From the IMG/VR virus record IMGVR_UViG_3300045988_054763: DNA of 42,369 nt; one strand, written 5' to 3'. Each line of letters begins with the position of its first letter. The first letter of the stretch is position 1. Positions 37,348-42,051 of this stretch are shown here, piece after piece. Under the pieces are notes generated by a model. The model worked only from the letters and a program-made list of their open reading frames with translations, was not told the DNA's origin and searched no databases. A program made the translations under genes and the position numbers. This DNA comes from a virus.

Positions 37348-37855
37348 TCTATCCCTCGCGCGGGATGGTGGGTATCTGCTCACCATCGCCACGCGGGAGA
37401 ATATCGGGCCGTTGTTTGACGAGCTGCACGAGACAGACGTTGACGTGACCGTGAAGAAGCACCGCGAGAAGCGGAGCTTGGATGCCAACGCCTACGCATG
37501 GGTTTTGCTGGACAAGCTCGCAGAGGCCACAGGAACGCCTACAAGCGAGGTTTACCGGCAGGCCGTGAAAGATGTCGGTGGGAACACGGAAACCGTCTGC
37601 GTGCGCGAGAAAGCCGTACAGAAGCTATGCGGCGGCTGGAACAAGAACGGTATCGGCTGGCAGACGGAAGTGATGGACAGCAAAATTGACGGCTGCAAGA
37701 ACGTGGTTCTGTATTACGGGTCGTCCACCTTTGACACAAGACAAATGTCGCGTCTGATCGACAACATCGTGCAGGACTGCAAGGCGGTTGGCATCGAGAC
37801 CTTGACCCCACAGCAGCTTGACGCGCTGAAGGAGGATTGGCGATGCACAAAATGA
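37328..37855 (+). CDS. NinB/Orf-like recombination mediator
   Basis: KKHREKRSLDANAYAWVLLDKLAE matches the lambda NinB RSLDQN signature region. Confidence 0.6.
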   Translation: MKARLHDLSLARDGGYLLTIATRENIGPLFDELHETDVDVTVKKHREKRSLDANAYAWVLLDKLAEATGTPTSEVYRQAVKDVGGNTETVCVREKAVQKLCGGWNKNGIGWQTEVMDSKIDGCKNVVLYYGSSTFDTRQMSRLIDNIVQDCKAVGIETLTPQQLDALKEDWRCTK

Positions 37856-38157
37856 CAAAGGCAACCTCTATCCCTAAAAGCGTCAAGGAGATTGTATACG
37901 AGCGCGACGGTGGGCGCTGCATTCTATGCGGGCGGAACAACGGAGAGCCGGTAGCGCACGTTATACGGCGCTCACAGGGCGGCAGAGGCATCGAACAGAA
38001 CATCGTAACGCTCTGCCCCTCCTGCCACCGAGCCTTTGACGAGGGGCCGCAGAGGACGGCGCTATACGCCTGCATCGTCGGCTACCTCAAAGCGAAATAC
38101 CACGGCTGGACACGGGAGAACATGATTTACAGGAAAAACAGGGAGGAATTGAAATGA
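37843..38157 (+). CDS. HNH endonuclease
   Basis: VYERDGGRCILCG...HVIRRSQGGRGIEQNIVTLCPSCH. Confidence 0.8.
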   Translation: MHKMTKATSIPKSVKEIVYERDGGRCILCGRNNGEPVAHVIRRSQGGRGIEQNIVTLCPSCHRAFDEGPQRTALYACIVGYLKAKYHGWTRENMIYRKNREELK

Positions 38158-38736: not shown

Positions 38737-39345
38737 ATGGCGGATATGACTTACATCAAGCTGTTTGTCGATTACTTAGACGCAATAGAGCCACTCGGTG
38801 ACGCTGAGAGGGGGAGGCTTTTCACTTCCTTGTTAGAATACGCAAGGACGGGCGAAGCCCCGCAGCTTGGCGGGAACGAACGGTTTCTTTTCCCTATGAT
38901 GAGGGCGCAAATCGACAGGGACAATGCTGCAATGGCGGGATTATCCGAGGCGCGAAGCAAGGCCGGGAAGATCGGAGCCGAGGCGAAACAAGCAAATGCA
39001 GGATTTGCCAAGCAAAACAAGCAAATGCCAAATTTGCCAAGCAAATCAAGCTATGACAAAGACAAAGACAAAGACAAAGACAAAGACAAAGACGAGAGTA
39101 TTACGCGCGCGAGGCGCTTTACCCCTCCCACTTTGGACGATGTTTTGGCTTATGTTCGGGAACGCGGTTCAGACGTAGACCCGCAACGGTTTCTTGATTT
39201 CTACGCATCCAAAGGCTGGATGGTAGGCAAGAATCCGATGAAGGACTGGAAAGCCGCCGTGCGAACATGGGAAAAGCGCGAGGATACGGGCAACCACTCC
39301 AATCCAACGCCTGGAAAAAATGCGTGGATGAAAGAATACCTGTGA
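38737..39345 (+). CDS. Replisome-organizer / DnaD-like replication protein
   Basis: N-terminus MTYIKLFVDYLDAIEPLGDAERGRLFTSLLEY and C-terminus VLAYVRERGSDVDPQRFLDFYASKGWMVGKNPMKDWKAAVRTWE. Confidence 0.6.
   Translation: MADMTYIKLFVDYLDAIEPLGDAERGRLFTSLLEYARTGEAPQLGGNERFLFPMMRAQIDRDNAAMAGLSEARSKAGKIGAEAKQANAGFAKQNKQMPNLPSKSSYDKDKDKDKDKDKDESITRARRFTPPTLDDVLAYVRERGSDVDPQRFLDFYASKGWMVGKNPMKDWKAAVRTWEKREDTGNHSNPTPGKNAWMKEYL
38988..39045. repeat. Two tandem 29-bp repeats, each with an internal inverted repeat (iteron-like)
   Basis: acaagcaaatgcaggatttgccaagcaaa / acaagcaaatgccaaatttgccaagcaaa, each with a GCAAAT-N5-ATTTGC core. Confidence 0.8.
39055..39093. repeat. Hexanucleotide microsatellite (GACAAA)6.5 encoding (DK)n
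   Basis: Read directly from the sequence: gacaaa six times plus gac. Confidence 0.95.
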
Positions 39346-39355
39346 GGAGGAAATC

Positions 39356-40600
39356 ATGAAACTCTTGATTGGCGGAAGCCCTTGCACGCACTGGAGTATC
39401 GCGCAGACCAAGAACCGCGAGACCGAGGCCAGCGGCATCGGCTGGGAGCTATTTTTAAACTACCGCATCGCCCGCGACAAGTACCAGCCGGACTATTTTC
39501 TCTACGAGAACAACAAATCCATGTCGCCCGCTATCCGGACGCAAATCACGGCGGAGCTGGGCGTGGAACCCGTGCTTATCAACTCCGCGCTGGTAAGCGC
39601 ACAAAACCGCCAGCGCCTGTATTGGGTGGGCAGACGGAACCCGGACGGCACATACAGCCAGGTGCCGGTGGAGCAGCCGGAGGACAGGGGTATTCTGCTG
39701 CGGGATATTTTGGAGACCGGCTTCCCGCTGCGCGAGAAGAGCTATGCGCTCCAAACAGGACACAGTGCGACGGCGGAGGATGCCGTTGCACGCAGGCAGC
39801 GGAACGCGGTAGCGGAGCCTGTTGCCATTAAGCCGCTGTCTGAGCGGGAAATGGATTACATGGTTGGTGAGCATGGCAAATACTCCGACCGTTGGACATA
39901 TCTGCAAAAGCCAGGAGAGGCAGACAAAGCGCTTTGCATCACCGCTAATGTACATCGCGGCGTTCCGTATAACATTTGCGCAGAGCCTGTACGAATCGGG
40001 ACCATCGAGAATGACGCGAAGAACCCGGACAATGACAGCCAGCAATACCGCGTCTATTCGCCGGACGGAAAGAGCGTGACCCTCTGCGGGAATGGCGGAG
40101 GCTTGGGAGCCAAGACGGGCCTTTATGCAACGCCGGTCGGCGGCCCGGATGGGAAAGCGTGGCCCGTATACAAAGTCCGCGACGGCTTTATCGCCATTAA
40201 AGGCAAGCGATACCCGATTAAACTGCGAGACGGCTTTTACATCATCCGCAAGCTGACGGTCCGCGAGTGTATGCGCCTCCAGACCGTGCCAGAGGAGTAT
40301 GTTTTCCCGGTGAGCAACAGCCAAGCCTACAAGATGCTGGGCAACGGCTGGACGGTGGACGTGATCGCCCACATTATGAGCCATTTTGAAGGGCTGACGA
40401 AAGAACCGGTGAAAGTGCTATCGATGTACGACGGTATGAGCTGCGGACATATCGCGCTGGACAAGCTGGGCGCGGAGATCGCCGCCTACTATGCGACCGA
40501 GATCGACAAGTACGCCATCCAGACCACGCAGCACAATTTCCCCGAGACCATCCAGCTTGGCGACGCATTTCAGGTGAGAGGGGAAGGGTGGACGCTATGA
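39356..40600 (+). CDS. DNA (cytosine-5) methyltransferase with circularly permuted motif order
   Basis: It starts at motif IV (MKLLIGGSPCTHWS), followed by ENNKSM (VI), SAQNRQRLYW (VIII), RKLTVRECMRLQTVPEEY (IX) and LGNGWTVDVIAHI (X). Only after these come motif I-III-like VKVLSMYDGMSCGHIALDKLG, YYATEID and LGDAF. Confidence 0.75.
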   Translation: MKLLIGGSPCTHWSIAQTKNRETEASGIGWELFLNYRIARDKYQPDYFLYENNKSMSPAIRTQITAELGVEPVLINSALVSAQNRQRLYWVGRRNPDGTYSQVPVEQPEDRGILLRDILETGFPLREKSYALQTGHSATAEDAVARRQRNAVAEPVAIKPLSEREMDYMVGEHGKYSDRWTYLQKPGEADKALCITANVHRGVPYNICAEPVRIGTIENDAKNPDNDSQQYRVYSPDGKSVTLCGNGGGLGAKTGLYATPVGGPDGKAWPVYKVRDGFIAIKGKRYPIKLRDGFYIIRKLTVRECMRLQTVPEEYVFPVSNSQAYKMLGNGWTVDVIAHIMSHFEGLTKEPVKVLSMYDGMSCGHIALDKLGAEIAAYYATEIDKYAIQTTQHNFPETIQLGDAFQVRGEGWTL

Positions 40601-41487
40601 GCCTTTCCGGTTACACCAACACGCCGATCCTGCCCGAGAAAGCAAAAGAGCTGATGTCCCTTGACGCCGAGGACAAGGAGATCATCACCTACGGCAAGAT
40701 CGAGGAGTGGTTCACAGCATGGGACGGGAAAGTCTATGTGAGCTTTTCCGGCGGCAAGGATTCAACCGTGCTGGCTTACCTTGCCGCAAACTGGCTCTCA
40801 CATTTCCGCACGCCGCCGTGGCCGCTGGACCTCGTATTTGTCAATACGGGGCTGGAATATCCAGAAGTTCAGAAGTTCGTAAACGAATATACGGACTGGC
40901 TGCGGAGGGAGTTTCCCCGTGTGACCGTCAACCTACACCGTCGGCGTCCGAAGATGAACATTCGGCAGGTGGTGCGGAAGTACGGGTATAGCATCGTGAG
41001 CAAAGAAGTGTCCGCATACGTAGGAAATGCTCGAATCAATCCAGATGGGAAATCGGCACAGCGTTTACGCGGGGAATACCTCGATAAAAATGGAGAAAAA
41101 TCCCCGTACAACTGCGAAAAGTGGGGGGATTTAGTTCATGCGCCGTTTCTCGTGTCGGATTCATGCTGCAAGGTGATGAAAAAGGGACCCATGCACAAGT
41201 TCGAGACCAAAACAGGGTTCCACCCCATGACAGCGTTGATGGCGGAAGAAAGTCGGCTGCGCATGCTGAAATGGCAACGCACAGGCTGCAACGCCTTTGA
41301 GGGCAAGCACCCGAGGGGAAAGCCCATGAGCTTTTGGGCGGAGCAGGACGTACTACGGTTTATCGTAGATCGGCAAATCCCTATCGTTAGCGTGTACGGC
41401 GATATCGTAGCCAGTGACGGCGAGAACGACTATGCGAAAACGCTGATCGACTGCAAGCTGCACTGCACGGGCTGCCAGAGAACAGGT
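40597..41487 (+). CDS. PAPS-reductase-like (PP-loop ATPase) protein, exon 1
   Basis: The PP-loop VYVSFSGGKDSTVLAYL. ATGA overlap with the methyltransferase stop. The unspliced frame stops at 41506-08. Confidence 0.8.
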
Positions 41488-41676
41488 CAGAGTATAACGG
41501 CCGCTTGATGGGGCGACTCATCATGTAATAACAGTGTGAACCCTATTACTCAGGGGTGTGCCGCCACAAGGCGGGGCTAACGGGGAAGCCCTAACGTAAA
41601 GACGAGGGTAATCCCGTGCTGGGCTAATCGTGATAGCGTATTTTGTGTTTATAAATTTGAGGTCTTGATTTGAGGT

Positions 41677-42051
41677 TTATGGATTTTTTAATTCTGTAGA
41701 ACACGGTTTTGTGATGCCAAATTTATCACAAAGCTCCTGCATCGGCATTTGAGCATTATAAGCATCAACGATGGCGGAAATGTTTAGATCGTCGCGGTTA
41801 TTGATGGGTACACGGTGCTTTCGCGAGCCAGCTTTATCTAAAGCGCGACAAACGGTGTATGTGTGGCATCCAAGAGATTTGTCTCTGCCGTATTTGGTTA
41901 CGGCATTGTAAAGTTTGTAGTTACGCCTGAGCTTTGCGGTGCTGGGCTTCATGTGAACCATAAATCTTTCGTGTACAGCCATTGTCGTTTGCCCGATGTA
42001 AACTTTATCGTTTACCGTGTTTTTGATGATGTAAATAGAACCTGTACGCAT
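41677..42051 (-). CDS. GIY-YIG homing-endonuclease-like protein, truncated catalytic domain plus HTH
   Basis: SIYIIKNTVNDKVYIGQT (GIY...YIG) and HERF (Arg) are present, but the downstream catalytic Glu region is absent. C-terminal MPMQELCDKFGITKP is an HTH. RBS gaggtga. Confidence 0.7.
   Translation of the reverse strand: MRTGSIYIIKNTVNDKVYIGQTTMAVHERFMVHMKPSTAKLRRNYKLYNAVTKYGRDKSLGCHTYTVCRALDKAGSRKHRVPINNRDDLNISAIVDAYNAQMPMQELCDKFGITKPCSTELKNP

Follow-up and report, generated by a model that had tools for sequence, protein, structure and literature searches.

IMG/VR virus record IMGVR_UViG_3300045988_054763, a stretch of 42,369 nt referred to below as the window, carries a gene for a C5-cytosine DNA methyltransferase in which the canonical I–X order of conserved motifs is not found. 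The 414 aa protein (nt 39356–40600, + strand) begins instead with motifs IV–VIII, continues with a variable region and motifs IX–X, and ends with motifs I–III. This order is confirmed by the alignments given below, and the best overall explanation is that the gene very probably specifies a complete, self-sufficient enzyme that has been circularly permuted. The open reading frame (ORF) is complete and agrees with a preliminary description of the window, made without database searches, which had also placed motifs IV–X ahead of I–III. The stop codon of the upstream gene lies at nt 39343–39345, and an in-frame TGA at nt 39329–39331, 27 nt 5' of the ORF, rules out an N-terminal extension of the protein. 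The features of the gene are as follows (AdoMet, S-adenosylmethionine).

39344–39350, + strand: ribosome-binding site (RBS) GAGGAGG, 5 nt before the ATG
39356–40600, + strand: whole ORF, very probable circularly permuted C5-cytosine DNA methyltransferase (from the PF00145 match and the swapped alignments)
39365–39397, + strand: motif IV LIGGSPCTHWS, residues 4–14, with the catalytic Cys10; strand beta-4, now the first strand of the chain
39497–39514, + strand: motif VI FLYENN, residues 48–53; Glu51 and Asn52 invariant, ENN in place of the usual ENV
39602–39622, + strand: motif VIII QNRQRLY, residues 83–89; Q83, R85 and R87 invariant
39623–40138, + strand: variable (putative target-recognition) region, with three segments ended by A-x-P-V
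40139–40270, + strand: conserved bridge, residues 262–296, PVYxVxDGxIxIKGKxYPIKLxDGFYI, with motif IX IRKLTVREC, residues 297–305
40334–40378, + strand: motif X MLGNGWTVDVIAHIM, residues 327–341; G329 and N330 invariant
40379–40408, + strand: new covalent junction SHFEGLTKEP, residues 342–351, linking the canonical C- and N-termini
40409–40447, + strand: motif I VKVLSMYDGMSCG, residues 352–364, AdoMet loop; D359 and G360 invariant
40487–40507, + strand: motif II YYATEID, residues 378–384; E382 invariant
40550–40597, + strand: motif III IQLGDAF (residues 399–405) and the C-terminal tail QVRGEGWTL

The catalytic residues of the protein are Pro9-Cys10 (motif IV), Glu51 (VI) and Q83/R85/R87 (VIII), and its AdoMet-binding elements are SMYDGMSCG (I), E382 (II), G402-D403 (III) and G329-N330 (X). 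The Pfam DNA_methylase profile (PF00145) matches the 414 aa protein at E 1.6e-29 (103.8 bits, cut-off 22); a hit in two segments had been anticipated, and three separate stretches were seen. TIGR00675, the full-length NCBIfam model for dcm, scores 87.4 bits and does not reach its whole-length cut-off of 100.65, as expected for a non-colinear match. Alignment with DNMT3C (8tci) equates query residues 349–393 with chain residues 3–49 (motifs I–II), 3–92 with 75–169 (IV–VIII), and 303–342 with 234–275 (IX–X). Canonical phage enzymes show the same swap. Residues 4–57 of the enzyme of Vibrio phage 1.147.O match query residues 355–408 (52% identity, E 7e-17) and its residues 66–401 match query residues 1–344 (E 2e-32), while residues 1–56 of the enzyme of Bacteroides phage BT19 match query residues 352–407 (57% identity, E 2e-17). 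The C-terminal 60–70 residues, the part on which the preliminary description had thought its reading might fail, thus align to motifs I–III of canonical relatives at 52–57% identity. Neither a missing motif I nor a second methylase fragment was found in the window by tblastn with canonical enzymes, which gave nothing outside nt 39350–40597, or by Pfam scans of the adjacent ORFs. The statement that no motif I lies upstream of motif IV therefore stands, and with the in-frame TGA there is no upstream exon or ORF that could supply one.

The position of the cut can be read from motif spacings. In 34 of 40 canonical relatives, 16 residues separate GD (motif III) from GG (motif IV); the permuted proteins have at least 11 residues after the former and 5–6 before the latter. 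Since these add up to about the canonical 16, the chain is cut inside the III–IV connector, as the preliminary description had it, with almost nothing lost or duplicated, and the tail QVRGEGWTL represents the first 9–11 residues of the severed connector. Two of the distances given earlier need adjusting. The ORF was said to start five residues before the PC motif, which is right for GGSPC, but eight residues precede Pro-Cys itself. The linker from motif X to motif I, put at 12 residues, is a connector of about 7–10 residues (SHFEGLTKEP), and GNGW and LSMYDG are spaced 22 residues apart. In 53 of 56 permuted representatives, the distance from X to I is 22 or 24 residues.

An AlphaFold run on a shallow alignment of 78 sequences (members 54–94% identical to the query) gave a core drawn from both ends of the chain, in blocks at a predicted local distance difference test score (pLDDT) of 70–96, with seven strands at residues 2–7, 47–53, 72–76, 86–94, 352–357, 375–381 and 398–402. 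To judge from this list of strands, a seven-stranded class I methyltransferase sheet may be built from both halves. The fold would be that of an ordinary methyltransferase, with the chain break moved to the 16-residue connector between strand 3 and strand 4 and the old canonical termini joined by a short new linker. In Foldseek the longest and best superposition of the model was with the permuted plant DRM (392 columns; template modelling (TM) score 0.38/0.47), and canonical DNMT3 chains gave about 125 columns (TM about 0.22). Because Foldseek aligns sequentially, canonical enzymes can give partial matches only; the result is consistent with the expected fold and is no test of strand pairing.

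The preliminary description treated a single gene, and the size and conservation of the clade to which it belongs are an aspect absent from it. A first protein search returned at least 8000 candidates, all at E ≤ 0.001. The 120 best of these, which were inspected, are 64–96% identical to the query, and nearly all begin MK[IL]LIGGSPCT[HR]WS and end soon after LGDAFQVR..W. A profile search seeded with diverse members added 115 more proteins, and the order IV–VIII / IX–X / I–III was found in all 235 listed relatives (120 + 115). When 1.84 billion cluster representatives were searched exhaustively with phmmer, 8974 matches were obtained, 1771 of them below E 1e-30; the best 150 of the 50%-identity representatives comprise 66 permuted and 43 canonical proteins, the remainder being fragments or special forms. 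The identical query protein is already public from four sources (3 contigs, the longest 43 kb), and the 90% cluster that holds it has 138 members. When one genome per bacterial species was scanned, 208 related loci were found, and at least 60 of the 77 fetched carry a permuted ORF. These are mostly from Oscillospiraceae and other gut Clostridia, and the carriers include the cultured Oscillibacter sp. 1-3, Flavonifractor sp. An92, Pseudoflavonifractor, Colidextribacter, Acutalibacter caecimuris and Robinsoniella peoriensis.

In a curated phage collection the permuted architecture is rare, being seen in phage nd4, where the protein is annotated as a hypothetical protein, and in one or two phages from fecal metagenomes. 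One of the fecal-metagenome records, MT836645.1, matches the full length of the query as one colinear piece, which implies the same permuted order, and the window itself resembles uncultured human fecal phages. The tblastn rows with "1-408 coverage" cannot be taken as proof that enzymes of Vibrio, Bacteroides, Cellulophaga and E. coli phages are permuted, as the pieces are joined in these rows regardless of order. Translation of two of the records, those of Vibrio phage 1.147.O and Bacteroides phage BT19, showed canonical enzymes, and nd4 alone was shown to be permuted among the records inspected.

In an alignment of 24 permuted proteins reaching down to 47% identity, E51, N52, Q83, R85, R87, G329, N330, D359, G360, E382 and G402 are invariant, and P9, C10 and D403 are kept in at least 90%. 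The invariant residues lie in both halves of the chain, which speaks for purifying selection on both and makes a decaying remnant unlikely. The query is very probably a real, functional permuted enzyme. The best matches among solved structures are DNMT3A/B/C, ahead of bacterial M.HhaI, with M.HaeIII and DRM also among the relatives, and the phage subfamily may be among the closest relatives of the DNMT3/DRM lineage in prokaryotic viruses. In the JGI data the query protein (P0272) and its relatives P0072, P0093 and P0469 are named "DNA (cytosine-5)-methyltransferase 3A". Two further relatives, P0296 and P0297 (787 aa), combine the permuted C5-methylase with a C-terminal Dam-type N6-adenine methylase (PF02086, DPPY motif), and the protein of phage nd4 and P0173 each have an acidic C-terminal extension of about 100 residues in place of such a fusion.

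The origin of the permutation was approached with a tree of 58 permuted, 42 canonical and 4 half-fusion sequences, in which the core segments were re-ordered to I–III + IV–VIII + IX–X, aligned (207 columns) and analysed by neighbour-joining. A single exact split unites all 58 permuted sequences and lies within the canonical phage enzymes. Exact monophyly was recovered in 144 of 200 bootstraps, with a mean Jaccard value of 0.98, and in the core the query shares 67% identity with its closest canonical relative. On this evidence a single origin within the canonical phage subfamily is likely. The PCTHWS and ENN forms of motifs IV and VI, which had been pointed out as unusual, do depart from the usual PCQ and ENV but are not linked to the permutation: PCT and ENN are present in 37–38 of the 42 canonical relatives and in 54–56 of the 58 permuted sequences. 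Being common in canonical relatives, the variants predate the permutation.

Double enzymes with the layout I–X + I–X form eleven 90% clusters in the same subfamily (774–971 aa, on phage-like contigs of about 207–213 kb). Their two halves are 46–49% identical to each other, and both carry PCT and ENN. A second, unrelated double enzyme, P0243, is a singleton. A half-trimmed form with the layout IX–X + I–X (P0255) is likewise a singleton, and its junction, ...NQKEPINVLS..., resembles ...LTKEPVKVLS... in the query. The tandem fusions were confirmed by cluster look-up and by protein search; scans of IMG/VR for the tandem-fusion form P0126 and the half-trimmed form P0255 returned canonical relatives only. 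The existence of stable double enzymes in the same subfamily means that the first step of duplication and trimming is tolerated there. The canonical ancestor would already have carried PCT and ENN; two copies or paralogues would have been fused in frame, head to tail, and the first I–III and the last IV–X would then have been lost. This route, somewhat better favoured than not, is close to the tandem duplication trimmed at both ends that had been suggested beforehand. That suggestion fits the unit-length termini, the double enzymes and P0255, yet it is unproven, and the fusions seen today join paralogues, not recent copies.

Several of the loci examined have other arrangements. Locus L123 (about 212 kb), which carries the double methylase P0403, has many short genes on the same strand and the look of a jumbo phage; an N6_N4 methylase is present as well, and about 3.6 kb downstream another C5-methylase lies beside an Eco47II-type restriction gene. 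In two viral contigs (L035 and L037) the methylase is split at the III|IV boundary, with a I–III ORF overlapping a following IV–X ORF, and in a genome contig (L097) a permuted gene is split between X and I into an IV–X ORF overlapping a following I–III ORF. These splits could be sequencing frameshifts or natural split enzymes.

The variable region begins with a conserved lead-in (about residues 90–127) and is made up of three segments, each ending in A-x-P-V: residues 90–156 (the lead-in and a first cassette), 157–212 and 213–261. The cassettes are 42–57 residues in size. Relatives have up to seven or more cassettes; those whose cores are more than 85% identical have up to seven, including exact cassette duplications, in differing orders. 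Multispecific Bacillus phage C5-methyltransferases carry several short tandem recognition modules between motifs VIII and IX. The query resembles these enzymes (M.SPRI, M.Phi3TI and M.Rho11sI) in being a solitary phage enzyme with tandem cassettes at that position; unlike it, they have the canonical motif order, and their sequences show no detectable similarity to its cassettes. When known phage enzymes and characterised recognition domains were compared with the cassettes, matches were found only in nd4 and one fecal phage. A variable region of shuffled cassettes might confer several recognition specificities, a suggestion that is put forward tentatively.

Among known enzymes, the closest to the query are canonical phage enzymes of its own subfamily (BT19 XXJ49786, 1.147.O AUR90578 and the metagenomic PCT/ENN protein P0143). 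They share all ten motifs with it, at up to 67% identity in the core and at 52–57% in motifs I–III even in distant members, and both they and the query lie in phage early or replication modules. They differ in having the order I–X with a 16-residue III–IV connector, whereas in the query this connector is cut and the old termini are joined. The plant enzymes DRM2 and NtDRM are natural permutants that, like the query, have an X-to-I junction and are DNMT3-like in sequence, and query residues 319–405 are colinear with DRM across this junction (E 4e-6 to 3e-5). The order in DRM is VI–X and then I–V, with the break between V and VI. In the query the PC motif (residues 9–10) lies upstream of all else, so that only the X-to-I junction is common to the two; DRM is in addition a eukaryotic protein with UBA domains and a different biology, and the query a phage protein.

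The natural prokaryotic C5 permutants M.BssHII, M.Alw26I, M2.Eco31I, M.Esp3I and M2.BsaI also have motif X joined to motif I. In this type the break is in the variable region, IX–X precede I–VIII and both domains are left intact, whereas in the query IV–VIII come first and the break, between III and IV, is inside the large domain; the difference from M.BssHII that the preliminary description had pointed to is therefore real. The BssHII type corresponds to Type H of Albert et al. 2018 (PMC5944983) and to class F or zeta of bioRxiv 10.1101/2023.12.13.571470. In a 2018 survey of REBASE, each of the 27 natural permuted C5-methyltransferases listed had its cut in the variable region, and the authors concluded that evolution prefers routes in which both domains stay intact (PMC5944983). 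Woodcock et al. 2020 refer to "one alternative permutation" (PMC7544214), and the 2025 version of a topology-based classification has only two topologies for 5-methylcytosine (m5C) enzymes (10.1101/2023.12.13.571470). Full-text literature searching, which did not extend to REBASE or to subscription-only papers, did not turn up any account of a natural enzyme permuted at III|IV.

The topology of the query has been made in the laboratory. Evolved cpM.HaeIII variants derived from tandem copies and starting between motifs III and IV were active (Peisajovich et al. 2006, as reported in PMC5944983). These proteins and the engineered cp122 M.MpeI were made from tandem duplicates by trimming, the route proposed here; they are artificial, while the clade of the query is natural, abundant and conserved. 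The class beta amino-methyltransferases M.PvuII, M.RsrI and CcrM have the same linear order as the query, class beta being defined by the catalytic motif IV, then the target-recognition domain (TRD), then motif I (PMC7544214). They differ in their N4/N6 chemistry and DPPY-type motif IV, and are unrelated to the query in sequence at this level. The TRD orientation of class beta has been proposed to enforce dimerisation, of which there is no hint in the query, as its TRD is inserted where canonical C5 enzymes have it, between motifs VIII and IX.

The order of genes in this part of the window is HNH, SSB, DUF6291 protein, methylase. In a Pfam scan the upstream gene (nt 38737–39345) proved to encode the DUF6291 protein and not a methylase; a GACAAA repeat at nt 39055–39095 gives this protein an (Asp-Lys)n run, DKDKDKDKDKDKD. 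Immediately downstream of the methylase lies one further feature:

40597–41508, + strand: PP-loop / PAPS-reductase-like gene (SGGKDS motif), overlapping the methylase stop codon by ATGA and translationally coupled to it

The pairing of a methylase with a PP-loop/PAPS-reductase-like gene recurs in locus L122, and the two may be functionally linked; the second protein is counted here as a neighbour only. An HNH endonuclease ORF (nt 37837–38157, + strand) and a GIY-YIG ORF (nt 41677–42051, - strand) flank the replication/methylase module. Both may be free-standing homing endonucleases, which would fit the traffic of homing elements in relatives of the methylase (below).

A relative with 55% identity, P0292, is found in another phage background (SSB, DUF551, methylase, YopX, HNH), which lacks a nearby second methylase, and no restriction endonuclease gene lies beside the methylase among the neighbours of either the query in the window or P0292. 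The absence of an adjacent second methylase or restriction gene marks the enzyme as solitary and self-contained. By the standard chemistry, Cys10 would attack C6 of a flipped-out cytosine, after which the methyl group of AdoMet would be transferred to C5, with Glu51 and Arg85/Arg87 placed in the catalytic half and the AdoMet pocket formed by motifs I–III together with X. The gene would be a solitary methylase in the replication or early module of a temperate phage of gut Clostridia, and its product would shield phage DNA from host restriction. A protective role of this kind is the most likely one, as far as gene context and sequence can indicate.

Mobile elements have entered these genes at the catalytic motif. 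Inteins (Intein_splicing, Hint_2 and LAGLIDADG_3 domains) are situated exactly between Pro and the catalytic Cys of motif IV (GGSP|C...VHN|CT[HY]WS) in the canonical proteins P0153 and P0189 and in the permuted proteins P0236 and P0152, and in the permuted hosts the N-extein is just 10 residues long (MKRILIGGSP). An insert at the Pro|Cys site is present in at least 14 of the best 150 representatives. A different insertion is seen in locus L122. A free-standing NUMOD4/HNH homing-endonuclease ORF (nt 931–1520 of that locus) opens with the first 13 codons of the methylase, MKLLIGGSPCTRW; after it come an RBS and a second copy, MVKLLIGGSPCT, closed by a stop codon, and the remainder of the methylase is in the -1 frame. 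The methylase product from this locus, P0009, starts MHLAHWS. Insertions of this form occur in 12 of 121 close homologues, and either such genes are inactivated or a -1 frameshift is needed, which would give PCT-LA-HWS. A group I intron in L122 is unlikely, since the endonuclease ORF nearly fills the insert and leaves no space for a ribozyme core (judged without an RNA-family search).

Four other accounts of the gene were considered. The C-terminal motifs I–III might be the dead remnant of an adjacent second methylase, leaving a protein that is inactive or that, as in M.AquI, needs an AdoMet-binding subunit. Split or frameshifted versions do occur, in L035, L037 and L097, but the window holds no other methylase fragment, D359, G360, E382 and G402 would not be expected to stay invariant down to 47% identity, and unit-length termini are unexpected of a random remnant. 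Moreover, the architecture is found in thousands of sequences, in varied phage backgrounds with no second methylase nearby. This account is highly improbable, and an artefact of assembly or gene calling, for example a gene called across the misjoined ends of a circularly permuted contig, has a negligible chance of being correct. There is a precedent for the latter in the record of Cellulophaga phage phi18:1, where a canonical methylase runs across the record ends (a match at 7–852 and a second place). The gene studied here, however, is internal to the window with well-formed genes on either side; the identical protein comes from four independent sources, and the same order is present in genomes of cultured isolates, on contigs of up to 813 kb. 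It is also very unlikely that the fold was kept and the function changed, for instance to that of a DNMT2-like RNA m5C methylase, of a DNA binder without catalysis or of an enzyme transferring a group other than methyl. PCT for PCQ in motif IV, ENN for ENV in motif VI and the translationally coupled downstream gene could be seen as signs of such a change. The two variants, though, are shared with canonical relatives and so are not tied to the permutation, all residues of the classical mechanism are conserved, the best relatives of solved structure (DNMT3A/B/C, M.HhaI, M.HaeIII and DRM) are bona fide DNA methyltransferases, and one relative carries a fused Dam-type DNA adenine methylase.

The remaining alternative concerns the route and not the product. 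The gene may have undergone fission in the III–IV connector and re-fusion in the reverse order or, in a variant of this, recombination promoted by homing elements at the DNA of the PC motif. ORFs split at the III|IV boundary (L035 and L037) would suit such a history, as would the inteins and the free-standing HNH endonuclease, whose insertion sites lie within a few codons of the new N-terminus; insertion of the endonuclease duplicates the first 12–13 codons and makes a new start with its own RBS. Against this, there are few split ORFs, and sequencing frameshifts may account for them; adjacent intact pairs of IV–X and I–III genes in that order were not seen except in L097. The same subfamily has stable I–X + I–X fusions and a half-trimmed IX–X + I–X form with a query-like junction. 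Fission and re-fusion is thus considered unlikely, and fusion followed by trimming is the preferred route to what is very probably a complete permuted enzyme.

Some observations weigh against parts of this interpretation. The support for monophyly is moderate (72% exact), the tree method is a simple one, and columns at the segment ends could carry signal correlated with topology. The double enzymes are fused paralogues outside the permuted clade and so bear on plausibility, not on ancestry, and P0255 and P0243, both singletons, come from short contigs. Overall the AlphaFold model is of poor quality (mean pLDDT 58.9), with residues 112–299 below 50, and the cassettes are without detectable similarity to characterised recognition domains. 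The engineered Type C protein cp122 M.MpeI, cut in the same III–IV interval, was poorly expressed and had a low activity that was undetectable on gels (PMC5944983). Lastly, the function of the permuted enzyme, including its activity, methylation pattern and specificity, is something that we infer.

C5-methyltransferases are a textbook case of fixed motif order, and the interest of the permuted enzyme lies in the evolution of protein topology and in correcting a generalisation, not in new chemistry or biology. Somewhat more likely than not, the query is the first enzyme recognised from a third natural C5-methyltransferase topology (IV–VIII, TRD, IX–X, I–III; beta-like), belonging to an abundant clade of single origin in temperate phages of gut Clostridia, with its break inside the catalytic large domain. 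In this interpretation the double enzymes are candidate analogues of the fusion step, so that permutation by duplication may have occurred in nature, and the clade is also one with inteins (10-residue N-extein) and homing endonucleases at the codons of the catalytic Cys. A large and conserved natural clade cut between III and IV makes the published generalisation incomplete that natural prokaryotic permutants have their break in the variable region (PMC5944983, PMC7544214, 10.1101/2023.12.13.571470), and the laboratory work on permutation by duplication (Peisajovich et al. 2006, in so far as PMC5944983 describes it) gains a natural counterpart, with candidate intermediates in the same subfamily. 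Profile-based annotation handles permuted proteins poorly, as seen from "hypothetical protein" in nd4, "DNMT3A" in the JGI data and the sub-cut-off score with TIGR00675, and motif-order searches of REBASE-type data can miss them. A natural chain start 8 residues before the catalytic Cys may help in the design of split or engineered methyltransferases. For the phages themselves, permuted enzymes are probably major contributors to the m5C patterns of the phages and prophages of gut Oscillospiraceae.

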